Below, in pieces: positions 1 to 32,330 of a stretch of DNA of 52,912 nt. The notes under the pieces were generated by a model, which saw only the letters and a list, made by a program, of their open reading frames with translations, did no database searches and was not told the DNA's origin. Origin of the DNA: Nemertoderma westbladi (Eukaryota > Animalia > Xenacoelomorpha); assembly GCA_032718475.1 (NCBI GenBank), contig JAUCBJ010000418.1, positions 1-52,912 of the forward strand. Direction: 5' to 3'. Positions within the stretch are counted from its first letter, which is position 1. Every line of letters begins with the position of its first letter. Both the position numbers and the translations under genes were made by a program.

Positions 1-390
1 AGCAGTAGTTCCAGTACTCCCCTATGAGGGTTTATGCTGGGCTCTAACTTGCGGAGGACACCAAATCTCTGGATGGCACATTCACAAGAATGCTACGCCG
101 GGTTCAGTGTTGTCAAGTAAAATGCACACATCTCCAACCAGACACTATATAACATTGGAGGTATCTCATTGGTTCCACCAAGCTTGACACTACAACAAAG
201 TCGCCTCCGCTTTGCAGGACATTGCTTTCGCCGTGAGGACCAGCCAGTGCATAATATTGTACTTTGGCAGCCTCATGGAGTGAATAAGCATGGTGGACAG
301 CCCATGACTTTCTTGAGACGCATCTTAAAGGACACTGGCCTTGAAGATGCGGATGATCTAGATGCAATGCATAGACATACACTTATCTCA
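1..390 (+). pseudogene. RTE-type LINE 3' fragment (region C-terminal to RT), degenerate
   Basis: Translation ...RLRFAGHCFRREDQPVHNIVLWQPHG..GGQPMT matches the RLR.AGH..R...P....LW.P.G.R..GRP C-terminal signature of RTE-clade ORF2. Frameshifted. A second copy lies inverted at 50586-50873. Confidence 0.75.
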
Positions 391-412
391 TGAGTTCATT
401 AACTCATGTGTA

Positions 413-537
413 ACTAATTTCGTTAACCTGTAATGGAACCATTGGTATCTTTGTTTCTTCATTGGCAATTGGGTTTGGCACAATGCAATGAATACACAAT
501 GATACCAATGGTTCCAGCACAGGTTAACGAAGTTAGT
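413..537. repeat. ~125-bp imperfect palindrome (MITE-like hairpin)
   Basis: Left arm actaatttcgttaacctgtaatggaaccattggtatc pairs with right arm gataccaatggttccagcacaggttaacgaagttagt. Pairing continues inward (ttcattg/caatgaa). Confidence 0.8.
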
Positions 538-879
538 GCTGATAATGGGGTGAGCAATTCATTGTTGTGCTGGTGTGGTCGTACATTAATTAAACCCCAT
601 TGAATCTCCAATGTCTTTGTTTTGTTTGGTTTGCAACCAGGATGACGAATAGAGAAACATTCTGGCAGTTAATCGGGAACGAGTTACAGTTTCTGGTATT
701 CAGTTGCGCAGTCGATCACAGCTACAACAGCTTTACTATACTGATTATATCATTGAAACCAATGATGAGGAAAGTTCATCTTATGATTTTCAACCCACTT
801 CCTTGCGACGTGAGTAAGTTGCTAGATGACGGGTTCTTTATTTTATTGGGACCAATTCTATTGTGAATGATGAAGATAC

Positions 880-1226
880 CTTTCAGGAAGATGTTTCTTC
901 CTCTGTTCGTGTGGAGGTTCACTGTGATAATGTGTTCGATGCTGTCATGAAGTTGTTCCTGGTTTTGGTGGAGATTTATCTGATGAAGATTCTATGAAGT
1001 TAAAGTTTACTATTAGCTTTTATGGAGAATCTGGTGTTGATGACAAGGGACTATCAAGAGAACTACTTTATTTATTCTGGGAAGAATTCTATGTAAAGGC
1101 AACATGTGGTACTGATGTTCTTTTACCAATAATTCGACACGATTGGCAAGATAGCACCTGGCAAATAATTGGTAGAATACTTGCTTAAGGTGTCAATCAA
1201 TTATCCGTGTATTCCACTATTAATCC
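880..1226 (+). pseudogene. HECT-like (G2E3-type) domain N-lobe fragment, degenerate
   Basis: VEVHCDNVFDAVMKLF ... KFTISFYGESGVDDKGLSRELLYLFWEEF ... IIGRILA fits the HECT F.GE.G.D.GG..RE motif. Frameshifts and a stop present. Confidence 0.65.
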
Positions 1227-1227
1227 C

Positions 1228-1655
1228 TGTACTACAAACCTCCAGTCGATAAGTTTATGGTCACTGTCCATATGCCACAATGAATTTGCAGACCGTACAG
1301 AATAAACCCAACATTGAATAGCTCTATGAAATCGTGATATGAAATCGAAATGAAAGCAATTCCTAGAGGATCAATCATATCATATCTTTCACGCAGGTGC
1401 CAACATTGAATGTAAATATTTCGCGCTTTCAATGTCCCATTTAAATATACATCCCCTATATTTGGAGTGCGCTGAATGACATCTTGAATGGCTATGTCTA
1501 TATGACCTCATTAGAAATCGCAGTGACACGAGAATAAAGAAGTCCATTTTCACCATGCGCTAACATTTAACAATTTGGCGACATCGTCAGTTTTAAATCA
1601 TAAATTAGTCAGAAAGCAAAGGGATTCTTCATTTATTATAAGTTTAGGCTGGCCA
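1228..1655 (-). pseudogene. Integrase-like DDE transposase N-terminal fragment (IS3EU-like), degenerate
   Basis: Minus-strand pieces GQPKLIINEESLCFL*, FKTDDVAKLLNVS (HTH-like), PNIGDVYLNGTLKARNIYIQ..LRE..DMIDPLG and VYSVRSANSLWHMDSDHKLIDWRFVV match the YSV..PNSLWHIDG.HKL..WRFV integrase-core family. Confidence 0.7.
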
Positions 1656-1799
1656 CTAAGATTGGCAAATGCCATACTGTATTGATTATATTAATATACA
1701 GTAAACAGGTAAATGTGGGTATGTAATGTTCTGAAATATTATGACTGGTGTAATTATTATAATAAGTTTTATTGATAAATGCTTTTCTTGGATTGAGAA

Positions 1800-4700
1800 G
1801 GCATTCTCGGGTGAAGTTTGCATTCTCGGGCCGAGTTTACATTCTCGGGTCGAGTTTGCATTCTCGGGCCGAATTTGCATTCTCGGGTCAAATTTGCATT
1901 CTCGGGCCGAGATTGCATTCTCAGGCAGAGTTTGCATTCTCGGGTCGAGTTTGCTTCTCGGCCACCGAGTTTGCATTCTCGGGCCGAGATTGCATTCTCA
2001 GGCAGAGTTTGCATTCCCAGGTCGAGTTTGCATTCTCGGGCAGAGTTTGCATTCTCAGCCACCGAGTTTGCATTCTCGGGCTGAGTTTGCATTCTCGGCC
2101 TCTGAGTTTGCATTCTCGGCCACCGAGTTTGCACTCTCGGGCTGAGTTTGCATTCTCGGGCAGAGTTTGCATTCTCGGCCACCGAGTTTGCATTCTCGGG
2201 CTGAGATTGCATTCTCGGCCACCGAGTTTGCATTCTCGGGCTGAGTTTGCATTCTCGGGCAGAGTTTGCATTCTCGGCCACCGAGATTGCATTCTCAGGA
2301 AGTGTTTGCATTCTCAGGCAGAGTTTGCATTCTCAGGCAGAGTTTGCATTCTCGGGTCGAGTTTGCATTCTCGGACAGAGTTTACTTTCTCGGCCACCGA
2401 GTTTGCATTCTCGGGCCGAGATTGCATTCTCAGGCAGAGTTTGCATTCTCGGGTCGAGTTTGCATTCTCGGCCACCGAGTTTGCATTCTCGGCCACCGAG
2501 TTTGCATTCTCGGGCAGAGTCTGCATTCTCGGCCACCGAGTTTGCATTCTCGGGCAGAGTTTGCATTCTCGGGCTGAGTTTGCATTCTCGGGCAGAGTTT
2601 GCATTCTCGGCCACCGAGTTTGCATTCTCGGCCACCGAGTTTGCATTCTCGGGCCGAGATTGCATTCTCAGGCAGAGTTTGCATTCTCGGGTCGAGTTTG
2701 CATTTTCGGGCAGAGTTTGCATTCTCGGGCCGAGTTTGCATTCTCGGGCCGAGTTTGCATTCTCGGGCCGAGTTTGCATTCTTGGGCTGAGTTTGCATTC
2801 TCGGGCCAAGTTTGCATTCTCGGCCACCGAGTTTGAATTCTCGGGCCGAGATTGCATTCTCGGGTCGAGTTTGCATTCTCGGGCAGAGTTTGCATTCTCG
2901 GCCACCGTGTTTGCATTCTCGGGCCGAGTTTGCATTCTCGGGCCGAGTTTGCATTCTCGGGCCGAATTTGCATTCTCGGGCAGAGTTTGCAATCTCGGGC
3001 AGAGTTTGCATTCTCGGGCCAAGTTTGCATTCTCGGCCACCGAGTTTGAATTCTCGGGCCGAGATTGCATTCTCGGGTCGAGTTTGCATTCTCGGGCAGA
3101 GTTTGCATTCTCGGCCACCGTGTTTGCATTCGCGGGCCGAGATTGCATTCTCGGGTCGAGTTTGCATTCTCGGGCAGAGTTTGCATTCTCGGCCACCGAG
3201 TTTGAATTCTCGGGCCGAGATTGCATTCTCGGGTCGAGTTTGCATTCTCGGGCAGAGTTTGCATTCTCGGCCACCGAGTTTGCATTCTCGGGACGAGTTT
3301 GCATTCTCGGGCAGAGTTTGCATTCTCGGCCACCGAGTTTGCATTCTCGGGGCTGAGATTTGCATTCTCGGGCTCGAGTTTGCATTCTCGGGCAGAGTTT
3401 GCATTCGCGGGCCGAGATTGCATTCTCGGGCCAAGTTTGCATTCTCGGCCACCGAGTTTGCATTCTCAGGAGAGTTTGCATTCTCGGCAGAGTTTGCATT
3501 CTCGGGTCGAGTTTGCATTCTCGGGCCGATATTGCATTCTCAGGCAGAGTTTGCATTCTCGGGTCGAGTTTGCATTCTCAGGCAGAGTTTGCATTCTCGG
3601 CCCCGAGTTTGAATTCTCGGGCCGAGATTGCATTCTCGGGTCGAGTTTGCATTCTCGGGCAGAGTTTGCATTCTCGGCCACCGAGTTTGCATTCTCGGCC
3701 ACCGAGTTTGCATTCTCGGGCCGAGTTTGCATTCTCGGGCCGAGTTTGCATTCTCGGGTCGAGTTTGCATTCTCGGGCCGAATTTGCATTCTCGGGCCGA
3801 TATTGCATTCTCGGGCAGAGTTTGGATTCTCGGGCCGAGATTGCATTCTCAGGCAGAGTTTGCATTCTCGGGTCGAGTTTGCTTTCTCGGCCACCGAGTT
3901 TGCATTCTCGGGCCGAGATTGCATTCTCAGGCAGAGTTTGCATTCCCGGGTCGAGTTTGCATTCTCGGGCAGAGTTTGCATTTTCGGCCACCGAGTTTGC
4001 ATTCTCGGGCTGAGTTTGCATTCTCGGCCACTGAGTTTGCATTCTCGGCCACCGAGTTTGCATTCTCGGGCTGAGTTTGCATGCTCGGGCAGAGTTTGCA
4101 TTCTCGGCCACCGAGTTTGCATTCTCGGGCTGAGTTTGCATTCTCGGCCACCGAGTTTGCATTCTCGGGCTGAGTTTGCATTCTCGGGCAGAGTTTGCAT
4201 TCTCGGCCACCGAGATTGCATTCTCAGGAAGAGTTTGCATTCTCAGGCAGAGTTTGCATTCTCAGGCAGAGATTGCATTCTCGGGTCGAGTTTGCATTCT
4301 CGGGCAGAGTTTGCTTTCTCGGCCACCGAGTTTGCATTCTCGGGCCGAGATTGCATTCTCAGGCAGAGTTTGCATTCTCGGGTCGAGTTTGCATTCTCGG
4401 CCACCGAGTTTGCATTCTCGGGCAGAGTTTGCATTCTCGGGCCGAGTTTGCATTCTCGGGCTGAGTTTGCATTCTCGGGCCGAGTTTGCATTCTCGGGCC
4501 GAGTTTGCATTCTTGGGCTGAGTTTGCAATCTCGGGCCGAGTTTGCATTCTCGGGCAGAGTTTGCAATCTCGGGCAGAGTTTGCATTCTCGGGCCGAGTT
4601 TGCATTCTCGGGCCGAGTTTGCATTCTTGGGCTGAGTTTGCAATCTCGGGCCGAGTTTGCATTCTCGGGCAGAGTTTGCAATCTCGGGCAGAGTTTGCAT

Positions 4701-6621
4701 TCTCGGGCCGATATTCCATTCTCAGGCAGAGTTTGCATTCTCGGCCAGAGTTTGCATTCTCGGCCGCCGAGTTTGCATTCTCGGGCAGAGTTTGCATTCT
4801 CGGCCACCGAGTTTGCATTCTCGGGCCGAGATTGCATTCTCGGCCAGAGTTTGCATTCTCGGGCTCGAGTTTGCATTCTCGGCCACTGAGTTTGCATTCT
4901 CGGCCACCGAGTTTGCATTCTCGGGCTCGAGTTTGCATTCTCGGGCAGAGTTTGCATTCTCGGCCACCGAGTTTGCATTCTCGGGCGAGTTTGCATTCTC
5001 GGGCAGAGTTTGCATTCTCGGCCACCGAGTTTGCATTCTCGGGCTGAGTTTGCATTCTCGGCCACCGAGTTTGCATTCTCGGGCTGAGTTTGCATTCTCG
5101 GGCAGAGTTTGCATTCTCGGCCACCGAGATTGCATTCTCAGGAAGAGTTTGCATTCTCAGGCAGAGTTTGCATTCTCGGGCCGAGTTTGCATTCTCGGGC
5201 TCGAGTTTGCATTCTCGGGCTGAGTTTGCTTTCTCGGCCACCGAGTTTGCATTCTCGGGCTGAGTTTGCATTCTCGGGCAGAGTTTGCATTCTCGGCCAC
5301 CGAGATTGCATTCTCAGGAAGAGTTTGCATTCTCAGGCAGAGTTTGCATTCTCGGGTCGAGTTTGCATTCTCGGCCACCGAGTTTGCATTCTCGGCCACC
5401 GAGTTTGCATTCGTGGGCAGAGTTTGCATTCTCGGACACCGAGTTTGCATTCTCGGGCTGAGTTTGCATTCTCGGCCACCGAGTTTGCATTCTCGGGCTG
5501 AGTTTGCATTCTCGGGCAGAGTTTGCATTCTCGGCCACCGAGTTTGCATTCTCGGGCCGAGATTGCATTCTCAGGCAGAGTTTGCATTCTCGGGTCGAGT
5601 TTGCATTCTCGGGCAGAGTTTGCATTCTCGGGCCGAGTTTGCATTCTCGGGCCGAGTTTGCATTCTCGGGCCGAGTTTGCATTCTTGGGCTGAGTTTGCA
5701 ATCTCGGGCCGAGTTTGCATTCTCGGGCAGAGTTTGCAATCTCGGGCAGAGTTTGCATTCTCGGGCCAAGTTTGCATTCTCGGCCACCGAGTTTGAATTC
5801 TCGGGCCGAGATTGCATTCTCGGGTCGAGTTTGCATTCTCGGGCAGAGTTTGCATTCTCGGCCACCGTGTTTGCATTCGCGGGCCGAGATTGCATTCTCG
5901 GGCCGAGTTTGCATTCTCGGGCCGAGATTGCATTCTCGGGTCGAGTTTGCATTCTCGGGCAGAGTTTGCATTCTCGGCCACCGTGTTTGAATTCTCGGGC
6001 CGAGATTGCATTCTCGGGTCGAGTTTGCATTCTCGGGCAGAGTTTGCATTCTCGGCCACCGTGTTTGCATTCGCGGGCCGATATTGCATTCTCAGGCAGA
6101 GTTTGCATTCTCGGGTCGAGTTTGCATTCTCAGGCAGAGTTTGCATTCTCGGGTCGAGTTTGCATTCTCGGCCACCGAGTTTGCATTCTCGGGCCGAGTT
6201 TGCATTCTCGGGTCGAGTTTGCATTCTCGGGTCGAGTTTGCATTCTCGGGCAGAGTTTGCATTCTCGGCCACCGAGTTTGCATTCTCGGGCCGAGATTGC
6301 ATTCTCGGCCACCGAGTTTGAATTCTCGGGCCGAGTTTGCATTCTCGGGTCGAGTTTGCATTCTCGGGTCGAGTTTGCATTCTCGGGCAGAGTTTGCATT
6401 CTCGGCCACCGAGTTTGCATTCTCGGGCCGAGATTGCATTCTCAGGCAGAGTTTGCATTCTCGGGTCGAATTTGCATTCTCAGGCAGAGTTTGCATTATC
6501 GGCCACCGAGTTTGCATTCTCAGGCAGAGTTTGCATTCTCGGCCACCGAGTTTGCATTCTCGGGCCGAGTTTGCATTCTCGGGTCGAGTTTGCATTCTCG
6601 GGCCGAGTTTGCATTCTCAGG
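1800..6621. repeat. Satellite of mixed 19- and 21-bp units (gagtttgcattctcgggcc / gagtttgcattctcggccacc), ~245 copies
   Basis: Direct tandem repetition with variable linkers (gggcc, gggca, gggtc, gggct, ggccacc, aggca). Confidence 0.97.
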
Positions 6622-6784
6622 TCAGGTCACGGCCCAGGCCATTCTGCACTCCACCCACTTTAATTCCCCCCAAGGTTCTGATTCGATTCTACTCATTATC
6701 AAACTTAGCTTTAGAAATTAAAAAAATTCATTTGATTAGCAAAAAATTATAAAGTTTCATGGGTCATTTAGTGTATTTCACTAA

Positions 6785-6881
6785 TTATAGAAAATTCCGG
6801 TTCCGGCCGGAATATTCCGGCATGTTGAATTCCGGTTCCGGTTCCGGCCAGAATCAAAAAATCGATTCCGGGACATCCCTA
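6785..6881. mobile_element. One end of a non-autonomous hAT-like element
   Basis: Ends in ...gggacatcccta (TAGGGATG terminus on the minus strand) with clustered ttccgg/ccggaa subterminal motifs. Abuts the 62-bp satellite. Other end not found. Confidence 0.55.
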
Positions 6882-9800
6882 AACTATACTGGGTTTCTAC
6901 TCACAGGCCCCATTACCTAACCCACCCACCTCCAGGTCACAAAACTCTACTGGGTTTCTACACACAGGCCAAATTACCGAACCCACCCACCTCCAGGTCA
7001 CAAAACTCTACTGGGTTTCTACACACAGGCCAAATTACCGAACCCACCCACCTCCAGATCACAAAACTCTACTGGGTTTCTACACACAGGCCAAATTACC
7101 GAACCCACCCACCTCCCTCCAGGTCACAAAACTCTACTGGGATTCTACACACAGCCCCCATTACCTAACCCACCCACCTCCAGGTCACAAAACTCTACTG
7201 GGTTTCTACACACAGGCCAAATTACCGAACCCACCCACCTCCAGGTCACTAAACTCTACCGGGTTTCTACACACAGCCCCCATTACATGACCCACCCACC
7301 TCCAGGTCACGAAAAGCTACACCGGGTTTCTACACATAGGCCCCATTACCGAACCCACCCACCTCCAGGTCACTGAAACGCTACTGGGTTTCTACACACA
7401 GCCCCCATTACCGAACCCACCCACCTCCAGGTCACTGAAAGCTACACCGGGTTTCTACACACAGCCCCCATTACCGAATCCACCCACTCCAGGTCACTAA
7501 ACTCTACTAGGTTTCTACACACAGCCCCCATTACCTAACCCACCCACCTCCAGGTCACGAAAAGCTACACCGGGTTTCTACACACAGGCCCAATTACCGA
7601 ACCCACCCACCTCCAGGTCACTGAAAGCTACACCGGGTTTCTACACACAGCCCCCATTACCGAATCCACCCACCTCCAGGTCATTAAACTCTACTGGGTT
7701 TCTACACACAGGCCAAATTACCTAACCCACCCACCTCCAGGTCACGAAAAGCTACACCGGGTTTCTACACACAGGCCCCATTACCGAACCCACCCACCTC
7801 CACGTCACTGAAAGCTACTGGGTTTCTACACACAGGCCAAATTACCGAACCCACCCACCTCCAGGTCACTAAACTCTACCGGGTTTCTACACACAGCCCC
7901 CATTACATGACCCACCCACCTCCAGGTCACGAAAAGCTACACCGGGTTTCTACACATAGGCCCCATTACCGAACCCACCCACCTCCAGGTCACTGAAAGC
8001 TACTGGGTTTCTACACACAGCCCCCATTACCGAACCCACCCACCTCCAGGTCACTAAACTCTACTAGGTTTCTACACACAGCCCCCATTACCTAACCCAC
8101 CCACCTCCAGGTCACGAAAAGCTACACCGGGTTTCTACACACAGGCCCAATTACCGAACCCACCCACCTCCAGGTCACAAAACTCTACTAGGTTTCTACA
8201 CACAGCCCCCATTACCTAACCCACCCACCTCCAGGTCACGAAAAGCTACACCGGGTTTCTACACACAGGCCCAATTACCGAACCCACCCACCTCCAGGTC
8301 ACTGAAAGCTACACCGGGTTTCTACACACAGCCCCCATTACCGAACCCACCCACCTCCAGGTCACTAAACTCTACTAGGTTTCTACACACAGCCCCCATT
8401 ACCTAACCCACCCACCTCCAGGTCACGAAAAGCTACACCGGGTTTCTACACACAGGCCCAATTACCGAACCCACCCACCTCCAGGTCACTGAAAGCTACA
8501 CCGGGTTTCTACACACAGCCCCCATTACCGAACCCACCCACCTCCAGGTCAGAAAACTCTACCAGGTTTCTACACACAGCCCCCATTACCGAATCCACCC
8601 ACCTCCAGGTCATTAAACTCTACTGGGTTTCTACACACAGGCCAAATTACCTAACCCACCCACCTCCAGGTCACGAAAAGCTACACCGGGTTTCTACACA
8701 CAGGCCCCATTACCGAACCCACCCACCTCCACGTCACTGAAAGCTACTGGGTTTCTACACACAGCCCCCATTACCGAACCCACCCACCTCCAGGTCACGA
8801 AAAGCTACACCGGGTTTCTACACACAGCCCCCATTACCGAACCCACCCACCTCCAGGTCACTGAAAGCTACACCGGGTTTCTACACACAGCCCACATTAC
8901 CGAATCCACCCACTCCAGGTCACTAAACTCTACTAGGTTTCTACACACAGCCCCCATTACCTAACCCACCCACCTCCAGGTCACGAAAAGCTACACCGGG
9001 TTTCTACACACAGCCCCCATTACCGAATCCACCCACCTCCAGGTCACTGAAAGCTACACCGGGTTTCTACACACAGCCCCCATTACCGAATCCACCCACC
9101 TCCAGGTCACTAAACTCTACTAGGTTTCTACACACAGCCCCCATTACCTAACCCACCCACCTCCAGGTCACGAAAAGCTACACCGGGTTTCTACACACAG
9201 GCCCAATTACCGAATCCACCCACCTCCAGGTCATTAAACTCTACTGGGTTTCTACACACAGCCCCCATTACCTAACCCACCCACCTCCAGGTCACAAAAC
9301 TCTACTGGGTTTCTACACACAGCCCCCATTACCTAACCCACCCACCTCCAGGTCACGAAAAGCTACACCGGGTTTCTACACACAGGCCCAATTACCGAAC
9401 CCACCCACCTCCAGGTCACTGAAAGCTACACCGGGTTTCTACACACAGCCCCCATTACCGAATCCACCCACCTCCAGGTCATTAAACTCTACTGGGTTTC
9501 TACACACAGCCCCCATTACCGAACCCACCCACCTCCAGGTCACTGAAAGCTACACCGGGTTTCTACACACAGCCCCCATTACCTAACCCACCCACCTCCA
9601 GGTCACGAAAAGCTACACTGGGTTTCTACACACAGCCCCCATTACCGAACCCACCCACCTCCAGGTCACGAAAAGCTACACTGGGTTTCTACACACAGCC
9701 CCCATTACCTAACCCACCCACCTCCAGGTCACTGAAAGCTACACCGGGTTTCTACACACAGCCCCCATTACCTAACCCACCCACCTCCAGGTCACGAAAA

Positions 9801-12800
9801 GCTACACTGGGTTTCTACACACAGCCCCCATTACCGAACCCACCCACCTCCAGGTCACTGAAAGCTACACCGGGTTTCTACACACAGCCCCCATTACCGA
9901 ATCCACCCACCTCCAGGTCATTAAACTCTACTGGGTTTCTACACACAGGCCAAATTACCGAACCCACCCACCTCCACTCCAGGTCACAAAACTATACTGG
10001 GTTTCTACACACAGGCCCAATTACCGAACCCACCCACCTCCAGGTCACTAAACTCTACCGGGTTTCTAAACACAGCCCCCATTACCTAACCCACCCACCT
10101 CCAGGTCACGAAAAGCTACACCGGGTTTCTACACACAGCCCCCATTACCGAATCCACCCACCTCCAGGTCACTAAACTCTACTAGGTTTCTACACACAGC
10201 CCCCATTACCTACCACCTCCAGGTCACGAAAAGCTACACCGGGTTTCTACACACAGGCCCAATTACCGAACCCACCCACCTCCAGGTCACTGAAAGCTAC
10301 ACCGGGTTTCTACACACAGCCCCCATTACCGAATCCACCCACCTCCAGGTCACTAAACTCTACTAGGTTTCTACACACAGCCCCCCTTTACCGAACCCAC
10401 CCACCTCCAGGTCATTAAACTCTACTGGGTTTCTACACACAGGCCCAATTACCAAACCCACCCACCTCCAGGTCATTAAACTCTACTGGGTTTCTACACA
10501 CAGGCCAAATTACCGAACCCACCCACCTCCCTCCAGGTCACAAAACTATACTGGGTTTCTACTCACAGGCCCCATTACCGAACCCACCCACCTCCAGGTC
10601 ACAAAACTATACTGGGTTTCTACACACAGGCCCAATTACTGAACCCACCCACCTCCAGGTCACTAAACTCTACCGGGTTTCTACACACAGCCCCCATTAC
10701 CTAACCCACCCACCTCCAGGTCACGAAAAGCTACACCGGGTTTCTACACACAGGCCCAATTACCGAACCCACCCACCTCCAGGTCACTAAACTCTACTAG
10801 GTTTCTACACACAGGCCCCATTACCTAACCCACCCACCTCCAGGTCACTGAAAGCTACACCGGGTTTCTACACACAGGCCCCATTACCGAACCCACCCAC
10901 CTCCAGGTCATTAAACTCTACTAGGTTTCTACACACAGCCCCCATTACCTAACCCACCCACCTCCAGGTCACTAAACTCTACTAGGTTTCTACACACAGC
11001 CCCCATTACCTAACCCACCCACCTCCAGGTCACGAAAAGCTACACCGGGTTTCTACACACAGGCCCAATTACCGAACCCACCCACCTCCAGGTCACTAAA
11101 CTCTACTAGGTTTCTACACACAGGCCCCATTACCTAACCCACCCACCTCCAGGTCACTAAACTCTACTGGGTTTCTACACACAGGCCCAATTACCGAACC
11201 CACCCACCTCCAGGTCATTAAACTCTACTAGGTTTCTACACACAGCCCCCATTACCTAACCCACCCACCTCCAGGTCACTAAACTCTACTAGGTTTCTAC
11301 ACACAGCCCCCATTACCTAACCCACCCACCTCCAGATCACGAAAAGCTACACCGGGTTTCTACACACAGCCCCCATTACCGAATCCACCCACCTCCAGGT
11401 CACAAAACTCTACCAGGTTTCTACACACAGCCCCCATTACCGAATCCACCCACCTCCAGGTCACTAAAATCTACTAGGTTTCTACACACAGCCCCCATTA
11501 CCTAACCCACCCACCTCCAGGTCACGAAACTCTACCAGGTTTCTACACACAGCCCCCATTACCGAATCCACCCACCTCCAGGTCATTAAACTCTACTAGG
11601 TTTCTACACACAGCCCCCATTACCTAACCCACCCACCTCCAGGTCACAAAACTCTACCAGGTTTTACACACAGGCCCCATTACCTAACCCACCCACCTCC
11701 AGGTCATTAAACTCTACTAGGTTTCTACACACAGCCCCCATTACCTAACCCACCCACCTCCCTCCAGGTCACGAAAAGCTACACCGGCTTTCTACACACA
11801 GGCCCAATTACCGAACCCACCCACCTCCAGGTCACTGAAAGCTACACCGGGTTTCTACACACAGCCCCCATTACCGAATCCACCCACCTCCAGGTCATTA
11901 AACTCTACTGGGTTTCTACACACAGGCCAAATTCCCGAACCCACCCACCTCCAGGTCACAAAACTATACTGGGTTTCTACACACAGGCCCAATTACCGAA
12001 CCCACCCACCTCCAGGTCACTAAACTCTACCGGGTTTCTACACACAGCCCCCATTACCTAACCCACCCACCTCCAGGTCACAAAACTCTACTGGGTTTCT
12101 ACACACAGGCCAAATTACCGAACCCACCCACCTCCAGGTCACTAAACTCTACCGGGTTTCTACACATAGCCCCCATTACCTAACCCACCCACCTCCAGGT
12201 CACAAAACTCTACTGGGTTTCTACACACAGCCCCCATTACCTAACCCACCCACCTCCAGGTCACTGAAAGCTACACCGGGTTTCTACACACAGCCCCCAT
12301 TACTTAACCCACCCACCTCCAGGTCACTAAACTCTACTAGGTTTCTACACACAGCCCCCATTACCTAACCCACCCACCTCCAGGTCACGAAAAGCTACAC
12401 CGGGTTTCTACACACAGCCCCCATTACTTAACCCACCCACCTCCAGGTCACGAAAAGCTACACCGGGTTTCTACACACAGGCCCAATTACCGAACCCACC
12501 CACCTCCAGGTCACTGAAAGCTACTGGGTTTCTACACACAGCCCCCATTACCGAATCCACCCACCTCCAGGTCATTAAACTCTACTAGGTTTCTACACAC
12601 AGCCCCCATTACCTAACCCACCCACCTCCAGGTCACTGAAAGCTACACCGGGTTTCTACACACATCCCCCATTACCGAATCCACCCACCTCCAGGTCATT
12701 AAACTCTACTGGGTTTCTACACACAGGCCAAATTACCGAACCCACCCACCTCCAGGTCACAAAACTATACTGGGTTTCTACACACAGGCCCAATTACCGA

Positions 12801-12945
12801 ACCCACCCACCTCCAGGTCACTAAACTCTACCGGGTTTCTACACACAGCCCCCATTACCTAACCCACCCACCTCCAGGTCACAAAACTCTACTGGGTTTC
12901 TACACACAGGCCAAATTACCGAACCCACCCACCTCCAGGTCACTA
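6882..12945. repeat. 61-63 bp satellite, distal block (~98 units), derived from the MESD exon2/intron2 junction
   Basis: Unit aaactctactgggtttctacacacagcccccattaccgaacccacccacctccaggtcac and variants (gaaagctacaccggg). Confidence 0.97.
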
Positions 12946-13822
12946 CACTGAAAAAAGTAAGTGGTGGTATTTTGTTAAAAAACTGCCGGTTTGCAAGAAC
13001 TACCTGGGGTTGTTTTGCAACGAAAACCACCGCAGGTTGTTTTTACAAACCGGAGGTAAATAAACATTGCCAAGAACTGGCAGTTGTGCAAACCGGGGGT
13101 TGATTATCTCTCGTAAAACCGGCGGTTCCATAACCCCCAGTTGTTTAGAACCTAAAAATGCGTTGTAAAACCTCTGGTATTTTATATCGCAAGGAACTGC
13201 CTGTTTCTGTAACCTCAGGTTCTGGTTTAACGCAAATTCCCGGTAGAATATTTAATCGGCATTTATTAACCTATGGTTTACTGCTGGTAACTGGCGTTTC
13301 AACTATTTAAAACTGCCGGTTTTCTCAAAAAACCACAGGTAAAACGGCAACCAAATAAACCAGTTTTTAAGAAACCGCCGTTTAATTGACAGTCAACTGG
13401 CGGTTTTATTTGAGAAAACTGGCAGTAATTTAAATAAACTGAGGTTTTAATTTATTTATAACCTATGGTTATAAAAGAAAAACCCAGAGTTAAAACGTAC
13501 TAACCTGTGGTTATAAAGAGCAAAAAAAGCTTATAAACCTGTGGTTATCTGGAAATAATGTTTGGTTAGGAGCACAGGACATTCAGGGCACACATGAAGC
13601 TCAATGTTACAACATTGAGATATGGGATGATCTACAAATAGTGTTTTGATTATTAATTTTAATATCATTTGTCTTCATTTCAGCCATATTAGATAATTCA
13701 TTTCAATTAATTTATATAAATTAATTAATTTTAATTAATTAAATTTTAATTAAATTAAGTTTAATTAATAATTTAAAATTATGTTTTGATTATATATATT
13801 TACTTATTATATTTACATATAC

Positions 13823-14919
13823 AAACTGGCAGTTATTAGTTTGTAAATCTGTGTGTGGTTCTGTGATAAACTGGCAGTTATTATTGCAAATCTGCGGTTC
13901 TATATCTGTGGTTCTGTGATAAACTGGCAGTCATTATTGTAAATCTGTGGTTCTGTGATAAACTGGTAGTCATTATTGTAAATCTGTGGTTCTGTGATAA
14001 ACTGGCAGTCATTATTGTAAATCTGTGGTTCTGTGATAAACTGGCAGTCATTATTGTAAATCTGTGGTTCTGTGATAAACTGGTAGTCATTATTGTAAAT
14101 CTGTGGTTCTGTGATAAACTGGTAGTCATTATTGTAAATCTGTGGTTCTGTGATAAACTGGCAGTCATTATTGTAAATCTGTGGTTCTGTGATAAACTGG
14201 CAGTCATTATTGTAAATCTGTGGTTCTGTGATAAACTGGCAGTCATTATTGTAAATCTGTGGTTCTGTGATAAACTGGCAGTCATTATTGTAAATCTGTG
14301 GTTCTGTGATAAACTGGCAGTCATTATTGTAAATCTGTGGTTCTGTGATAAACTGGCAGTCATTATTGTAAATCTGTGGTTCTGTGATAAACTGGTAGTC
14401 ATTATTGTAAATCTGTGGTTCTGTGATAAACTGGCAGTCATTATTGTAAATCTGTGGTTCTGTGATAAACTGGCAGTCATTATTGTAAATCTGTGGTTCT
14501 GTGATAAACTGGCAGTCATTATTGTAAATCTGCGGTTCTGTGATAAACTGGCAGTCATTATTGTAAATCTGTGGTTCTGTGATAAACTGGCAGTCATTAT
14601 TGTAAATCTGTGGTTCTGTGATAAACTGGCAGTAATTATTGTAAATCTGTGGTTCTGTGATAAACTGGCAGTCATTATTGTAAATCTGTGGTTCTGTGAT
14701 AAACTGGCAGTCATTATTGTAAATCTGTGGTTCTGTGATAAACTGGCAGTCATTATTGTAAATTTGTGGTTCTGTGATAAACTGGCAGTCATTATTGTAA
14801 ATCTGTGGTTCTGTGATAAACTGGCAGTCATTATTGTAAATCTGTGGTTCTGTGATAAACTGGCAGTCATTATTGTAAATCTGTGGTTCTGTGATAAACT
14901 GGCAGTCATTATTGTAAAT
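13823..14919. repeat. 39-bp minisatellite (~28 copies) inside the CMC element
   Basis: Unit aaatctgtggttctgtgataaactggcagtcattattgt, nearly invariant. Confidence 0.97.
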
Positions 14920-15029
14920 TAGTTATATCATCACGCCTCTGTAATACAGAAATAACGGCATTACCAGTTGAATTACACAACTTAGGGTTCTTTGTATGTA
15001 CTATAGTAAAAACCGGCAATTGTGAAAAT

Positions 15030-15455
15030 ACAACCGCCATTTTTACATTTCATACAAACCGCCGGTTTGAAAACTACATACGTGTTTATTAACAAGAACC
15101 GACAGTTTGAATATAAGACCACCATTTTTACATTTCGTAAAAACCGCCGGTTTGAAAACTACATACGTGTTTGTTAACAAGAACCGACAGTTTGAATATA
15201 AGACCACCAATTTTACATTTCATAAAAACCGCCGGTTTGAAAACTACATACGTGTTTATTAACAAGAACCGACAGTTTGAATATAAGACCACCATTTTTA
15301 CATTTCATAAAAACCGCCGGTTTGAAAACTATAAGCGTTTAATTAACAAGAACCAACAGTTTAAAAATAAAACCGCCATTTTAACATTTCATAAAAACCG
15401 CCGGTTTGAAAATTATATGTTTTCATCAATAAGAACCGCCAGTTTGAAAATTTAA
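15030..15455. repeat. ~85-bp tandem repeat (~5 copies) inside the CMC element
   Basis: acc(a/g)cca(t/a)tttt... recurs at ~15033, 15118, 15203, 15288 and 15372. Confidence 0.85.
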
Positions 15456-15691
15456 TAACCACCTTTTTAATACAACCGTCACTTTCTATGCAAAATTCCG
15501 CACTGACTACAGGTTTCGTTTCAGGTATTATAACCAATATATCTTAAACCGCCGGTTTAATATCGTAACCCGAGGTTCCTACCAGCCATTTTTCTATGAT
15601 CCATACTAACCCCCGGTTTATCAATCACTACCGCAAGTACCTATCCATAACCAATGGTTAAAAAATCGACCGGCACTTACTTTTTTCAGTG

Positions 15692-17622
15692 TAAACTCTA
15701 CCGGGTTTCTACACACAGCCCCCATTACCTAACCCACCCACCTCCAGGTCACTGAAAGCTACACCGGGTTTCTACACACAGCCCCCATTACTTAACCCAC
15801 CCACCTCCAGGTCACGAAAAGCTACACCGGGTTTCTACACACAGGCCCAATTACCGAACCCACCCACCTCCAGGTCACTAAACTCTACTGGGTTTCTACA
15901 CACAGCCCCCATTACCTAACCCACCCACCTCCAGGTCACTAAACTCTACCAGGTTTCTACACACAGCCCCCATTACCGAATCCACCCACCTCCAGGTCAC
16001 TAAACTCTACTAGGTTTCTACACACAGCCCCATTACCTAACCCACCCACCTCCAGGTCACTGAAAGCTACACCGGGTTTCTACACACAGCCCCCATTACC
16101 GAATCCACCCACCTCCAGGTCACAAAACTCTACTGGGTTTCTACACACAGCCCCCATTACCTAACCCACCCACCTCCAGGTCACGAAAAGCTACACCGGG
16201 TTTCTACACACAGCCCCCATTACTTAACCCACCCACCTCCAGGTCACGAAAAGCTACACTGGGTTTCTACACACAGGCCCAATTACCGAACCCACCCACC
16301 TCCAGGTCACTAAACTCTACTAGGTTTCTACACACAGCCCCCATTACCGAATCCACCCACCTCCAGGTCACTAAACTCTACTGGGTTTCTACACACAGCC
16401 CCCATTACCGAACCCACCCACCTCCAGGTCACTAAACTCTACCAGGTTTCTACACACAGGCCCAATTACCGAACCCACCCACCTCCAGGTCACTAAACTC
16501 TACTAGGTTTCTACACACAGCCCCCCTTTACCGAACCCACCCACCTCCAGGTCACTGAAAGCTACACCGGGTTTCTACACACAGCCCCCATTACCGAATC
16601 CACCCACCTCCAGGTCACTAAACTCTACTAGGTTTCTACACACAGCCCCCATTACCGAACCCACCCACCTCCAGGTCACTAAACTCTACCAGGTTTCTAC
16701 ACACAGCCCCCATTACCGAATCCACCCACCTCCAGGTCACTAAACTCTACTAGGTTTCTACACACAGCCCCCATTACCGAACCCACCCACCTCCAGGTCA
16801 CTAAACTCTACCAGGTTTCTACACACAGGCCCAATTACCAAACCCACCCACCTCCAGGTCACTAAACTCTACCAGGTTTCTACACACAGGCCCAATTACC
16901 GAACCCACCCACCTCCAGGTCACTGAAAGCTACACCGGGTTTCTACACACAGCCCCCATTACCGAATCCACCCACCTCCAGGTCACTAAACTCTACCGGG
17001 TTTCTACACACAGCCCCCATTACCGAACCCACCCACCTCCAGGTCACTGAAAGCTACACCGGGTTTCTACACACAGCCCCCATTACCGAATCCACCCACC
17101 TCCAGGTCACTAAACTCTACCAGGTTTCTACACACAGCCCCCATTACCGAACCCACCCACCTCCAGGTCACAAAACTCTACTGGGTTTCTACATACTGCC
17201 CCCATTACCTAACCCACCCACCTCCAGGTCACTAAACTCTACCAGGTTTCTACACACAGCCCCCCTTTACCGAACCCACCCACCTCCAGGTCACTGAAAG
17301 CTACACCGGGTTTCTACACACAGCCCCCATTACCGAATCCACCCACCTCCAGGTCACTAAACTCTACCGGGTTTCTACACACAGCCCCCATTACCGAACC
17401 CACCCACCTCCAGGTCACAAAACTCTACTGGGTTTCTACATACTGCCCCCATTACCTAACCCACCCACCTCCAGGTCACTAAACTCTACCAGGTTTCTAC
17501 ACACAGCCCCCATTACCGAACCCACCCACCTCCAGGTCACTGAAAGCTACTGGGTTTCTACACACAGCCCCCATTACCGAACCCACCCACCTCCAGGTCA
17601 CTGAAAGCTACACCGGGTTTCT
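15692..17622. repeat. 61-63 bp satellite, proximal block (~31 units), running into MESD exon 2
   Basis: Same unit as 6882-12945. The last partial unit is the 3' end of the coding exon. Confidence 0.97.
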
Positions 17623-17677
17623 TCTTCCTTTTATGTTCCGGTAATTCATCTTCTTCTAATTCGTCATCATCGTGATC
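17591..17677 (-). CDS. MESD: LRP chaperone MESD (boca), exon 2
   Basis: Acceptor tttatttttgtAG, 87 nt, phase 0/0, DHDDDELEEDELPEHKRKKKPGVAFSDLE, donor GAG|GTGGGT. Matches the MESD motif DDD.EEGDLPEHKR...DFS. Confidence 0.9.
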
Positions 17678-18137
17678 CTACAAAAATAAAATAGAACAAA
17701 GTAATATTTGCCCGTGTTCAATTCTACCAGTTGCGATGATAGATGACCTTGCATTAACCTATATAGTAAGTAATATAGCTGACCTAGTTGACTATATACT
17801 GTAGTACGATAAAAATGACAATTTGAAGTCGAACAAATTTTGGTAACTACAGGACATGATTATGATAGGGGGATGGGTAAGCAGAAATCCCGTCAAAAAC
17901 AATACATTGCCTACAGGGACAGGCCTAGCACTTGGCTAATAATTCGTATATTTGATATTTTCAGCCTATCTCAGCGACCTTAAAATATAAATATATTCAA
18001 TAGGCCTAGTTTATCACGATAAATTAATTGTTTCTTTATAAAATATAATATATTAATATTACCGTCGGTTTGTAACACAGTAAGTACCGTAGGCCCGATA
18101 TCTATAAAATAAATTTCAGAATGTTGACGAAACTAAC

Positions 18138-18308
18138 TTCCCATTCTTCATAAATCTTTTCAATCTCAGCTTCGGTCAAATCCCGAACATCCTTCTTCTT
18201 CTTGCCAGTTTTATGTGATGTATCGCCCGATTCCACTAACTCAAACACATCCAGTAAAATAATTAAACAAAGAATCACAGCAGTTAACAAATGGCGTTGG
18301 ACATACAT
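18138..18308 (-). CDS. MESD: LRP chaperone MESD (boca), exon 1
   Basis: ATG, hydrophobic signal peptide, then KKKKDVRDLTEAEIEKIYEEWE (MESD KKKDIRD...D...L.EQWE). Donor GAA|GTTAGT splices in frame to exon 2. Confidence 0.9.
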
Positions 18309-21098: not shown

Positions 21099-23807
21099 AG
21101 ATGAGTGGTTGTTGCTGAGCAGATAAAGGTAGATGAGCTGTGGTTGCTGCGCAGATCAAGGTAGATGAGTGGTGGTTGCTGCGCAGATCAAGGTAGATGA
21201 GTGGTGGTTGCTGCGCAGATCAAGGTAGATGAGTGGTGGTTGCTGCGCAGATCAAGGTAGATGAGTGGTGGTTGCTGTGCAGATAAAGGTAGATGAGCTG
21301 TGGTTGCTGCGCAGATCAAGGTAGATGAGTGGTGGTTGCTGCGCAGATCAAGGTAGATGAGTGGTGGTTGCTGCGCAGATCAAGGTAGATGAGTGGTGGT
21401 TGCTGCGCAGATCAAGGTAGATGAGTGGTGGTTGCTGGGCAGATCAAGACAGATGAGTGGTGGTTGCTGGGCAGATCAAGACAGATGAGTGGTGGTTGCT
21501 ATATATATCAAGGTAGATGAGTGGTGGTTGCTGCGCAGATCAAGGTAGATGAGTGGTGGTTGCTGCGCAGATCAAGGTAGATGAGTGGTGGTTGCTGCGC
21601 AGATCAAGGTAGATGAGTGGTGGTTGCTGCGCAGATCAAGGTAGATGAGTGGTGGTTGCTGCGCAGATCAAGGTAGATGAGTGGTGGTTGCTGCGCAGAT
21701 CAAGGTAGATGAGTGGTGGTTGCTGGGCAGATCAAGACAGATGAGTTGTGGTTGCTGCGCAGATCAAGGTAGATGAGTGGTGGTTGCTGGGCAGATCAAG
21801 ACAGATGAGTGGTGGTTGCTGCGCAGATCAAAGTAGATGAGTGGTGGTTGCTGCGCAGATCAAGGTAGATGAGTGGTGGTTGCTGCGCAGATCAAGGTAG
21901 ATGAGTGGTGGTTGCTGGGCAGATCAAGACAGATGAGTTGTGGTTGCTGCGCAGATCAAGGTAGATGAGTGGTGGTTGCTGCGCAGATCAAGGTAGATGA
22001 GTGGTGGTTGCTGCGCAGATCAAGGTAGATGAGTGGTGGTTGCTGCGCAGATCAAGGTAGATGAGAGGTGGTTGCTGCGCATATCAAGGTAGATGAGTTG
22101 TGGTTGCTGCGCAGATCAAGGTAGATGAGTTGTGGGTGCTGCGCAGATCAAGGTAGATAGTTGTGGTTGCTGCGCAGATCAAGGTAGATGAGTTGTGGTT
22201 GCTGCACAGATCAAGGTAGTTGAGTTGCGGTTGCTGCGCAGATCAAGATAGATGAGTGGCGGTTGCTGCGCATATCAGGGTAGATGAGTGGTGGTTGCTG
22301 CGCAGATCAAGGTAGATGAGTTGTGGTTGCTGCGCTGATCAAGGTAGATGAGTTGTGGTTGCTGCGCAGATCAAGGTATATGAGTGGTGGTTGCTGCGCA
22401 GATCAAGGTAGATGAGTTGTGGTTGCTGCGCAGATCAAGACAGATGAGTGGTGGTTGCTGCGCAGATCAAAGTAGATGAGTGGTGGTTGCTGCGCAGATC
22501 AAGGTAGATGAGTGGTGGTTGCTGCGCAGATCAAGACAGATGAGTGGTGGTTGCTGCGCATATCAATGTAGATGAGTGGTGGTTGCTGCGCAGAACAAGG
22601 TAGATGAGTGGTGGTTGCTGCGCAGATCAAGTTAGATGAGTTGTGGTTGCTGCGCAGATCAAAGTAGATGAGTGGTGGTTGCTGCGCAGATCAAGACAGA
22701 TGAGTGGTGGTTGCTGCGCATATCAATGTAGATGAGTGGTGGTTGCTGCGCAGATCAAGGTAGATGAGTGGTGGTTGCTGCGCAGATCAAGTTAGATGAG
22801 TTGTGGTTGCTGCGCAGATCAAAGTAGATGAGTGGTGGTTGCTGCGCAGATCAAGGTAGATGAGCTGTGGTTGCTGCGCAGATCAAGGTAGATGAGTGGT
22901 GGTTGCTGCGCAGATCAAGGTAGATGAGTTGTGGTTGCTGCGCAGATCAAGGTAGATGAGTGGGGGTTGCTGCGCAGATCAAGGTAGATAGTTGTGGTTG
23001 CTGCGCAGATCAAGGTAGATGAGTTGTGGTTGCTGCGCAGATCAAGGTAGTTGAGTTGTGGTTGCTGCGCAGATCAAGGTAGTTGAGTGGTGGTTGCTGC
23101 GCAGATCAAGGTAGATAGTTGTGGTTGCTGCGCAGATCAAGGTAGATGAGTTGTGGTTGCTGCGCAGATCAAGGTAGATGAGTTGTGGTTGCTGCGCAGA
23201 TCAATGTAGATGAGTGGTGGTTACTGCGCAGATCAAGGTAGATGAGTTGTGGTTGCTGCGCAGATCAAGTTAGATGAGTTGTGGTTGCTGCGCAGATCAA
23301 CGTAGATGAGTGGTGGTTGCTGCGCAGATCAAAGTAGATGAGTGGTGGTTGCTGCGCAGATCAAGGTAGATGAGTGGTGGTTGCTGGGCAGATCAAGACA
23401 GATGAGTGGTGGTTGCTGCGCATATCAAGGTAGATGAGTAGTGGTTGCTGCGCAGATCAAGGTAGATGAGTGGTGGTTGCTGCGCATATCAAGGTAGATG
23501 AGTGGTGGTTGCTGCGCAGATCAATGTAGATAGTTGTGGTTGCTGCGCAGATCAAAGTAGATGAGTGGTGGTTGCTGCGCAGATCAAGGTAGATGAGTGG
23601 TGGTTGCTGCGCATATCAAGGTAGATGAGTAGTGGTTGCTGCGCAGATCAAGGTAGATGAGTGGTGGTTGCTATATATATCAAGGTAGATGAGTGGTGGT
23701 TGCTGCGCAGATCAAGGTAGATAGTTGTGGTTGCTGCGCAGATCAAAGTAGATGAGTGGTGGTTGCTGCGCAGATCAAGGTAGATGAGTGGTGGTTGCTG
23801 CGCATAT
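21099..23807. repeat. 32-bp satellite, block 1
   Basis: Unit gatcaaggtagatgagtggtggttgctgcgca, ~85 copies. Confidence 0.97.
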
Positions 23808-25581
23808 TATTATACTCGCGCACATAAGCGCAAACCAGGCTAGCTGGCATTTATTAGTAAAATTGTGACGATTATACAATTATGCCGATTACACTATTAT
23901 AAAATCATAGTAAACGAACAGGATCAACATCACTACTAAATTATTAAATAAAATATAAGTCAATAGTTGGCTAAAAATAAAGCTTAAAAATGGCACCAGT
24001 GATTATACAATCAATGTTGGGTAGGGTTAGTATAGCATAGGGACGACACGTTATAATTAACATTAATCAAATAGATATCGTTATATATAAGTATGTATAC
24101 GGTTCGAATTAACCCCAATTAAGAGTATGCAATAAAGGAACAAACTTAAAATCCGTAAAATTGTAGTATTCTATTATGTTTAGTTTTAAAAGTTACTCCG
24201 TGCAGATCGTAGCAATTCTTTACAAAATTAGCACAGATTATGTCGTCAAGCGAGCTATTGCCAGTTTGAAGTCCTGTCAAAAGTGCACGTTTGTCATATT
24301 CACATGTTAGTATAGACCACATGGAAGGGATTTGGTGAGTTTCCTTTGCTCGTCTGTAGGTGCTCATGAGGCCCCTGTATAACGTGCGGGATATCGCATT
24401 ATCCAAAGCAATGTACCGGAAGCTAGTTTGTAAGGTGAATATAGGGCATCTAAGTATTTGCAATAATGTTGACACGGCGCCACGATAGGCCATGGTGCTG
24501 AGAGGCAAAATATTCAGGAGTTCGTATAATGTGTCGTTGTTTATATATACTCCAACATGCAGAAGTCGGCGTAGAGCCTGTCTATATGCTGAATCGATAC
24601 GAGATATGTCATTCTTGCTCAGGTTACCAATCGTATACTTCAGCTTGTATGTCAAGCTTGGGATTACAAGTGACTTCCAGAGATATGATAATGTTTCGGT
24701 ATCTAACCATTGCGATGTCCACCCTTTCTGTTGAAAAATTCCTCCCATTTTCCATATATGCTGAGTGCACTCTGCGGCAGCGTGTGCGCTAGTTTTGTTG
24801 GAAGAAAGAGTGTAGCCCAGGAACTCGATTGTCTGACTTTCCGGTATTAGCTGCCCATTAATATTGAGGAAACACGGTATGTAAGTGTTGTTGTTAGCTT
24901 CGCTGTACATCCAGTGACATTTAGACGGCTCGAACATTAGTTGTAACTTATCGAGCCCCATGTTCAGTATATTTGACATGAGTTCTATTTCCTGTATTGT
25001 AGTGGCTAAAAGAAAAACATCATCAGCATACATTATGCAGCCGAACCAGATATCGTTGATCATGCACCCCAGTCCGGATTCAGTTAGCGACTGCATGACG
25101 CTGATGGTGTAAAGATTAAATAAGCATGGTGACAGTAATGATCCTTGCATGATCCCTCTAGGCATATTTATGCCAACCACATCTATCAGATTTCCAAACT
25201 TGAGGTACACCATGGCGATGCTGTAGTAATGAACCAGTAGACGGCAAATGAATGGGTTTATAATTCCTGATAACTTCTCGAAGAGAACTGCGTGGTCAAC
25301 TTCGTCAAAAGCGGATTTGATATCAAGTTGGCACATATACAGACCTGATCCTAGTTCACTAAAGTGTTGTATACATTCCAGTATCAAACCGATGGCAGCC
25401 TCGCATCCCACATGTTCTTTATATGCTAACTGATAGTCGTTTCTTGGAAGGATATTCTCAAGGAAGCCCTTGTATATTATACGCTCGAGTACCTTTGCTA
25501 ATAGGCATATGCTGGCAATCGGTCTATAAGAGTTAGTTCTCATGGGATCCTTCCTCTTCCCTATCTGCATCTTCCCTTCCT
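23808..25581 (-). mobile_element. 5'-truncated non-LTR retrotransposon (LINE A; RTE-X-like), RT domain to 3' end
   Basis: Uninterrupted ORF 24146-25581 with SYRPIAS, LDIKSAFDEV, GIMQGSLLSP and YADD. 3' UTR ends in hairpins and a short (taa) tail. gcatat duplicated at 23802-23807 and 25582-25587. Confidence 0.92.
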
Positions 25582-25787
25582 GCATATCAAGGTAGATGAG
25601 TAGTGGTTGCTGCGCAGATCAAGGTAGATGAGTGGTGGTTGCTATATATATCAAGGTAGATGAGTGGTGGTTGCTGCGCATATCAAGGTAGATGAGTGGT
25701 GGTTGCTGCGCAGATCAAGGTAGATAGTTGTGGTTGCTGCGCAGATCAAGGTAGATGAGTTGTGGTTGCTGCGCAGATCAAGGTAGT
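25582..25787. repeat. 32-bp satellite, block 2 (~6 units between two LINEs)
   Basis: Same unit. Continues the variant pattern interrupted at 23807. Confidence 0.95.
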
Positions 25788-31465: not shown

Positions 31466-32330
31466 CGATTCTGAATTTGGCACTCTTTTCAATGAGAATA
31501 TCACAGACACTTTTGACCTAAACCCAACCACAGTCGAATCACATTCAGTCGTGCCACGGGCATGATATAGATTTAGAAATAAACTGGGAAATGTAATCAG
31601 AAAATCTTTTATAGATCACATTGTAGTATCAAATGACATGTTTGACAGCCTTTTATTCACCAAAGTCTTTAATACTGATGATGATAATGTATCTGACCAT
31701 GTCCCAGTATATTCAACCTTCTACACAAATCTTGCCCAAACGGCAGGGGACTTTAGAGGGACTGAGAGTAAATGGGGGAGACATACAAAACCTGTATTTT
31801 TGTTTGGGAGAGCAACTAAGAATGACATAGAAAATTATCAAGAAGAGGTATGTCGCTCCTTGAAAATATGCTGTGATTGGGCATCTGCAGAAACACAGAT
31901 CACGAGGGACAACATTGAGCTCCGAGCCAATGGATTGATCGACATTTTGTATCAAGCAGCTAGAAAGAAGAACATCCGACATGTATTTCCAAGACACCAT
32001 AAGGGACGCAGGAACCGGCAAAACACAAGACCCTTGGATCATAATTGGCACTTAATGAAAGGGAAGATAACAATGGGCAATAAGGATGATTGGAATCCTT
32101 CAATATCACTGCTAGAGAACAAAAGAATGACGCACCGAGTAGAGACTCATAAATACTGGCAACATATAAGGAATTTGGCTAACGATTGTCGTTCGAGTTA
32201 CAACAGATTCTGGTATAGATTGAAGTCAGAGAACAGTGTTGCTATGACTGATGTCCATAGGGACCAATTTTACTCAGACTATATGGGAAGATTCAGCATA
32301 AAGAGTTACCCATTATCAAGATTATCATGA
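31466..32330 (+). pseudogene. LINE C fragment: APE C-terminus and linker, paralogous to LINE B
   Basis: YRFRNKLGNVIRKSFIDHIV..SDHVPV..PVFLFGRATK..YWQHIRNLANDC aligns with LINE B YRFKNIFGQVTRSSLIDHVV..SDHTAV..PVYMFKRATK..YWEHIRNLTDSC. Truncated at both ends. Confidence 0.88.

Follow-up and report, generated by a model that had tools for sequence, protein, structure and literature searches.

Introduction

Minisatellites that lie across an exon-intron border, and so repeat the 5' splice site (donor) down the intron, have been described in human genes and in amphioxus. In intron 7 of human F7, the first unit of a 37-bp variable number tandem repeat (VNTR) of 5–9 copies spans the border, and only the first donor is reported to be used, the downstream sites being functional but not competing (Borensztajn et al., 2006; PMC1557585). 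According to the same paper, two extra donors are used in 6-16 and CBS, and the first only in LMNB2 and PDGF; the 31-bp VNTR of CBS intron 13 is given elsewhere as c.1444_1467+7(16_21) (PMC2630376). The 'mirage' minisatellites of amphioxus, found in Adh3 and in the globins BflGb6 and BflGb9, are described as apparently not disturbing splicing (PMC3087553). Here, we analyze a repeat of this kind in Nemertoderma westbladi (Xenacoelomorpha), on contig JAUCBJ010000418.1 of assembly GCA_032718475.1; the whole stretch analyzed, 52,912 nt, is referred to as the window in the following. It holds about 129 head-to-tail copies of a minisatellite-sized unit at the predicted exon 2/intron 2 border of a gene for the chaperone MESD, which is encoded on the minus strand.

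Tandem repeats have been linked to introns in other ways as well. Intron gain by tandem duplication, as modeled by Rogers in 1989 and discussed for ATP2A1 and potato RdRp, is described as involving a wholly exonic unit, with the protein kept (PMC4974935), and has already been proposed for the amphioxus mirages (PMC3087553). Tandem-repeat changes at the exon-intron borders of human paralogues have been counted (PMC2812944), and the length of an intronic repeat can reportedly track splicing (PMC6660495, PMC10078293).

The MESD array is a donor-spanning minisatellite, and its arrangement is not new, being the same as in human F7, CBS, 6-16, LMNB2 and PDGF and in amphioxus. As far as these systems are described in the sources above, it shares with F7 a donor repeated down the intron, the G-rich character of this donor and even the intronic hexamer GTGGGT, but the F7 repeat has 5–9 copies with 4 exonic bases, whereas the MESD array, whose unit includes 30 exonic bases, runs to ~129 copies, mixes unit types and is split by an inserted element. 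Moreover, first-donor use was shown in F7 and is predicted in MESD. The units of CBS likewise span the donor, with 24 exonic and 7 intronic bases, and differ from each other by substitutions; in CBS, 6-16, LMNB2 and PDGF, however, there are 10–25 copies. The amphioxus mirages are also tandem copies of an exon-intron border in an invertebrate, are length-unstable and contain cryptic AG/GT signals, but those of the globins comprise just 3–6 units of 150–160 bp; the MESD protein of the present species differs from three Branchiostoma MESD proteins. With duplications of the Rogers type, the array has in common that a piece holding AG|GT was duplicated in tandem; there, however, a new intron arises, whereas the MESD unit is half intronic and contains a stop, and its duplication only lengthens the intron. 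Finally, the VNTR in intron 18 of ABCA7 is similarly intronic and multi-kilobase (300 bp to >10 kb), the difference being that an effect of its length on expression and splicing has been reported (PMC6660495). Searches of the open-access literature gave no description of the MESD array, and a search there for decoy or pseudo-splice sites returned only the F7 paper (PMC1557585) on the donor-spanning class.

What sets the locus apart is its size: the cases described in the above sources have 3–25 copies, about five times fewer. We propose, with a probability of roughly 0.7, that the array arose locally as a minisatellite of the predicted exon 2/intron 2 border and was expanded by turnover, that splicing would remove all of it by using the first donor, and that it has little or no function.

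Results

The array and its unit

Tandem Repeats Finder reported two blocks with a single type of repeat, at 6881–12943 (98.0 copies) and 15692–17622 (31.3 copies). Cutting them into units on the minus strand yielded 128 complete units, one split unit and a 15-nt stub, ~8.0 kb in all. The proximal block (15692–17620, minus strand) contains 31 complete units and the 5' half of the split unit; its 3' half, 97 complete units and the stub form the distal block (6882–12945, minus strand). An earlier, sequence-only reading of this DNA had estimated ~130 tandem copies, which agrees well with this count, and a unit of 63 bp. This is exactly the length and sequence of unit 1 (17558–17620), but 61 bp is the commoner length (72 of 128 units, against 43 with 63 bp), and the remaining 13 units measure 57–67 bp.

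In its 63-bp form, the unit combines the last 30 nt of MESD exon 2 with a 33-nt half that holds a donor-like site. The first 30 nt of unit 1 carry on the exon-2 frame (DHDDDELEEDELPEHKRKKKPGVAFSDLE) and encode KPGVAFSDLE. While this peptide had been ascribed to the 63-bp unit, it is encoded exactly by only 22 of the 128 exon halves. An open, unshifted frame is kept in 48 halves, whereas the other 80 are shifted or contain a stop, and an in-frame stop is also found in most of the 28-nt halves. At the end of a conserved exon, the final 10 codons are open to exchange with these 80 copies. The donor GAG|GTGGGT is kept in 126 of 129 donor-bearing units and destroyed by deletions in three; its proposed repetition over ~8 kb thus holds, except that a 2746-bp element splits the array. 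Reading past the first donor gives VGGFGNGGCV-stop, as had been noted, and the 33-nt half nearly always contains a stop, so distal donors would bring one into the message.

A 22-nt pattern of the unit has 125 matches in the window, all within the two blocks, and none in 100 shuffles. Elsewhere in the window, BLASTN found nothing better than E 2.1, and metagenome contigs contained no exact match to the 22-nt pattern, although this is weak evidence as the species may be absent there. Since unit 1 keeps the register of the coding exon and the rest of the window is free of the unit, a local origin is likely, and the idea of a satellite built from the gene's own exon end and donor-like site stands.

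The host gene and its predicted second intron

Similarity to Pfam Mesd, mouse MESD and a MESD profile defines two exons. The coding part of exon 1 (18138–18308, minus strand) comprises 57 codons, starts at an ATG with a hydrophobic, signal-peptide-like segment and ends in KKKKDVRDLTEAEIEKIYEEWE. Intron 1 (17678–18137, minus strand; 460 nt) was delimited by its sequence (GAA|GTTAGT ... TTTTTGTAG) and by comparison with fetched MESD loci; it is in phase 0 and at a conserved position. Exon 2 (17591–17677, minus strand) has 29 codons if its donor is at 17590, and contributes its last 30 nt to repeat unit 1 as the first half of that unit. The two exons match Pfam Mesd (PF10185) with E-values of 0.0046 and 0.00018, as fragments that each fall below the gathering score; exon 1 separately matches Mesd positions 1–20 (E 0.0077). 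Against a profile of 121 MESD proteins, the independent E-values (i-E) are 5.6e-10 and 1.6e-6. Both exons also match mouse MESD chains, with FSDL of unit 1 aligned to mouse FSKL in the continued frame. The N-terminal MESD/Boca segments KKKD.RD...E.WE and E.ELPEHKR are present, with the intron after WE; a GT follows the WE codons in 28 of 35 fetched MESD loci, the other 7 being continuous open reading frames (ORFs). Over its 86 codons, the copy contains neither stop nor frameshift, and intron 1 is a canonical GT-AG intron.

Since no GT occurs in exon 2 upstream of 17613, a GT donor can only be located in unit 1 or further downstream. We predict that the authentic donor of intron 2 is the phase-0 site GAG|GTGGGT (17585–17593, minus strand, cutting at 17590), which, with 6/9 consensus matches, is the best of six sites scored; weaker alternatives are found at 17613, 17611 (read from the sequence), 17601, 17586, 17582 and 17577. 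The identical 9-mer forms the conserved intron-1 donor in 4 of 28 loci, where the borders were assigned by homology and the four proteins are similar rather than independent. The earlier reading had taken this site to be the real MESD donor; the lack of a GT in exon 2 upstream of unit 1 is compatible with this, while the authenticity of the site keeps the status of a prediction. The 10 codons read through beyond it are not MESD-like, given that 1773 of 3000 random peptides score as high on the profile, which indicates that the 33-nt half is non-coding in origin.

No further MESD exon was detected in the window: the best other match among 3369 stop-to-stop peptides had an i-E of 7.4 with the MESD profile, in a search that was controlled with six held-out MESD proteins: of 18 exon-sized pieces cut from these, 17 were recovered with an E-value of 0.001 or better. 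It follows that intron 2 is longer than 17.5 kb or that the MESD copy is broken. The MESD core domain and the C-terminal endoplasmic reticulum (ER)-retention signal are not within the window and may lie beyond position 1. Database comparisons gave no closer guide. With exon 1 alone as query, no longer homolog was found at E 1 or below among 31 candidates; a profile of exons 1–2 and the protein P0011 picked out 17 proteins with a MESD domain from 5508 candidates, but none is so similar that it reveals the sequence following DLE; comparing each exon by BLASTP with all the proteins collected pointed to no clear nearest group; and the literature matches listed for MESD intron positions in invertebrates held nothing relevant. 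Among the proteins, a 773-aa NCBI/UniRef entry (P0149) combines a Mesd domain with a SAS-6 N-terminal domain and is possibly a merged gene model.

A probably neutral minisatellite and the observations against this reading

In the scenario we favor, a 63-bp piece across the predicted exon 2/intron 2 border of MESD would have been duplicated in tandem on the spot, and the copies would then have been expanded and shuffled by ordinary minisatellite turnover. Intron 2 would be older than the repeat, and the G-rich, quadruplex-like strand with its minisatellite core motif may have helped the expansion. The spliceosome would be expected to take the most upstream donor, as in F7, and any leak to later donors would meet a stop after 33 nt, with the RNA probably being degraded. 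Such decay generally requires a distance of 50–55 nt between stop and junction; the junction formed from donor 2 would fall 28 nt after the stop, within this limit, so that decay after donor-2 use would depend on later introns, which are present in other MESD genes. The array itself is probably neutral. If so, it matters little, as one more donor-spanning minisatellite, although it would be well suited to finding out whether splicing in another animal still selects the first donor when 125 others compete.

Several observations weigh against this reading. First, of the 13 intron-bearing MESD loci in which exon 2 is visible (15 further loci showed exon 1 only), 11 read through the site of intron 2, so that the intron is either lineage-specific or the gene is broken. 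Second, the last 10 codons of exon 2 fit the MESD profile only marginally, as 141 of 3000 random tails score as high. Third, the precedent for first-donor use comes from mammalian cells and 5–9 copies, compared to 129 in this animal, and even among the human cases, CBS and 6-16 make use of two additional donors. Finally, substitutions spare the donor, which is a poor fit to uniform neutral decay: the donor 9-mer has 0 of 32 substitution alleles (expected 4.6, P 0.007), and the longest substitution-free run is a 13-mer around it, TGGAGGTGGGTGG (P 0.010), in a test that assumes uniform mutation and followed a look at several patterns.

Discussion

The two main rivals of a neutral, locally born minisatellite are a broken gene copy and a length-dependent leak of splicing into the array. 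In the first, exon 2 once ran on, as it does in most animals, and was cut by a foreign G-rich insertion or a partial duplication; the repeat would then span the breakpoint, and its GT would be no working donor. The missing exon is what one would expect in this case, as the 17.5 kb downstream hold no match better than i-E 7.4 and everything there is repeat or transposon-like; the 11 of 13 informative loci that read through the site fit as well. Nevertheless, we consider a broken copy unlikely. The 86 codons are without stop or frameshift, intron 1 is canonical and conserved, and the break would have to coincide with a phase-0 donor 9-mer of the kind seen at the intron-1 border of 4/28 MESD loci. 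Furthermore, introns do occur in this stretch: locus L009 has a phase-0 intron two codons upstream of the site, after ..FDK (L009:640-900). The ORFs P0011 and P0013, compared at the protein level, also appear to leave MESD similarity at a nearby Val codon. In locus L031, an intron lies further upstream, after ..NPDG (L031:3190-7900); this intron and that of L009 interrupt a stretch that forms one exon in most MESD loci.

In the second rival, later donors take a share of splicing, run into the stop at +33 nt and thereby lower MESD through RNA decay, as a dial set by copy number. The sequence-only reading had put forward a copy-number-tunable decoy-donor array. It could account for the 126 intact donors and their substitution-free core, and it has parallels in the extra donors of CBS and 6-16, in the length of the intronic ABCA7 VNTR, which is reported to track expression and exon skipping (PMC6660495), and in a reported genome-wide association of tandem repeats with splicing (PMC10078293). 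However, identical downstream sites do not compete in F7, even when strengthened, and where extra sites are reported to be used elsewhere, they number only two (in 6-16, the nearest pair), which would leave copies 4 to 129 with little to contribute. Three donors have been destroyed by indels, and selection on each of 125 copies would presumably be very weak. We therefore regard such a dial as rather improbable.

The donor core calls for a closer look, since its lack of substitutions sits uneasily with plain neutral decay. In four other arrays of the window, no comparable run stands out (P 0.34–0.97; for the 39-bp array, based on just 4 alleles). Indels, on the other hand, do strike the core, with GGAG-type duplications in 4 units in addition to the three deletions. 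The core has its first nine bases in common with the human hypervariable minisatellite core GGAGGTGGGCAGGARG, as given in PMC9069542. On the MESD strand, 17–19% of 25-nt windows reach a score of at least 1.2 in our own G4Hunter-type script, compared to 0% in five other arrays, and quadruplex-driven instability has been reported for the minisatellite CEB1. It is conceivable, if rather doubtful, that the GGAG|GTGGG donor is the engine of its own amplification and is kept substitution-free by turnover. The result would be an 8-kb platform of 125 intact predicted U1-binding sites opening a very long intron full of transposons, and the length of this platform might adjust MESD splicing or shield the nascent RNA. 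If the core does reflect a link between G-rich donors and the birth of minisatellites, this would explain why the class recurs. The motif is not sufficient to seed an array: four loci (L007, L012, L013 and L016) have GGAG|GTGGG at intron 1 and no array there. Overall, these observations on the core are a hint that it is kept by turnover rather than by splicing.

The sequence-only reading had also considered the units as micro-exons or as recursive splicing steps, and both ideas came out weak. For comparison, we used 26 acceptors from 12 fetched loci, located by homology and scored at positions -20 to -4. They have 8–14 pyrimidines and 0–7 G, and all end in YAG (CAG or TAG). A 30-nt KPGVAFSDLE micro-exon would have to use the TAG at the unit end, where 6/17 positions are pyrimidines and 9/17 are G, outside the range of all 26, although composition is a proxy. 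Still, 48 of 128 exon halves preserve an open frame, a branch-like TAAT occurs in the unit, and the exon 2 acceptor of L007 ends in TGTGTGTAG, identical to the unit end. Set against this, neighboring units leave 27–34 nt between their exon halves, which is shorter than usual animal introns, and the 80 halves that are out of frame or stopped give no sign of frame keeping. With 9 pyrimidines and 4 G, an internal CTTTCAG does resemble the compared acceptors, but use of this best internal acceptor would yield a 10-nt exon beginning with TGA. A recursive splice site, in turn, is a strong YAG acceptor directly followed by a donor, whereas the AG before the MESD donor is GAG, unlike 26/26 compared acceptors. 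Taken together, we deem micro-exons and recursive AG|GT steps very unlikely.

An origin of the intron itself by duplication of an exonic AGGT segment, with the first GT and the last AG used, as suggested by the AG|GT in the unit and by the absence of the intron from most other loci, is highly improbable: the model is described as needing a wholly exonic unit (PMC4974935), whereas the 33-nt half reads VGGFGNGGCV-stop, is not MESD-like (1773/3000) and, if non-coding in origin, rules out this route, and no copy resumes the MESD frame. Equally hard to credit is a genome-wide satellite or mobile-element end that inserted where the exon stops and is no more than a mimic of it, for although the marginal MESD fit of the last 10 codons (141/3000) would allow it, there is no copy elsewhere in the 52.9 kb, unit 1 continues the frame with FSDL aligned to mouse FSKL, and the metagenome collection, in which the species may be absent, has no exact 22-mer match.

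Insertion and history of the array

The array is interrupted by a 2746-bp non-coding element at 12946–15691, delimited by BLASTN, Tandem Repeats Finder and its sequence, which lies within a single unit. Its ends are inverted repeats of 18 bp that match perfectly, and it is accompanied by a TA duplication. It may be CACTA/EnSpm-like. It carries tandem repeats of its own, of 39 bp (26 copies, 98% matches) and 85 bp (5 copies). At its far end, the array is cut off by a transposon-end-like sequence (6619–6881, minus strand) that begins with TAGGGATG and contains short internal repeats; it may be hAT-like. An exact 8-mer search at 1–6881 found no partner for this end. Both interruptions (15692–15708 and 6882–6896) fall at a nearly equal offset, 15–17 nt, of a 61-bp-type unit.

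The units fall into 71 distinct sequences, and none of the 127 neighboring pairs is identical. Their mean pairwise difference of 6.8 columns is nearly flat with distance, the longest repeated run comprises 3 units, and unit types are mixed along the array. As 7 of the 21 proximal unit types also occur in the distal block, the array is likely older than the insertion. An assembly artefact is unlikely in view of the 71 distinct units, the lack of identical neighbors and the clean insertion with its TA duplication.

Repeat-rich surroundings

Tandem repeats make up 41% of the window, or 30% without the MESD array, and include arrays of 4.8, 2.7 and 2.4 kb. The region is satellite-prone, and a long satellite is nothing unusual in it. 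The presumed MESD intron 2 contains a 19-bp satellite that extends over 4.8 kb (1801–6618, 247 copies). A 32-bp repeat forms three arrays, at 21099–23804, 25582–25786 and 29077–31465 (85, 6 and 75 copies), two of which lie just upstream of LINE-like ORFs at 25816–28440 and 31566–32330. The former encodes an endonuclease and a reverse transcriptase (RT), while the latter has no Pfam match but looks similar. An oppositely oriented RT ORF (24146–25618) starts inside the small 32-bp array, placing two RT frames head to head. At 38313–43378, there are two long minus-strand ORFs, one of 1031 aa with a DUF1759 domain, which we assume to be Bel/Pao gag-like, and one of 704 aa, which contains a repeat rich in Ala and Glu and lacks a Pfam match. 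Finally, positions 1–305 and 50570–50870 are inverted copies, 87% identical, of a dispersed repeat.

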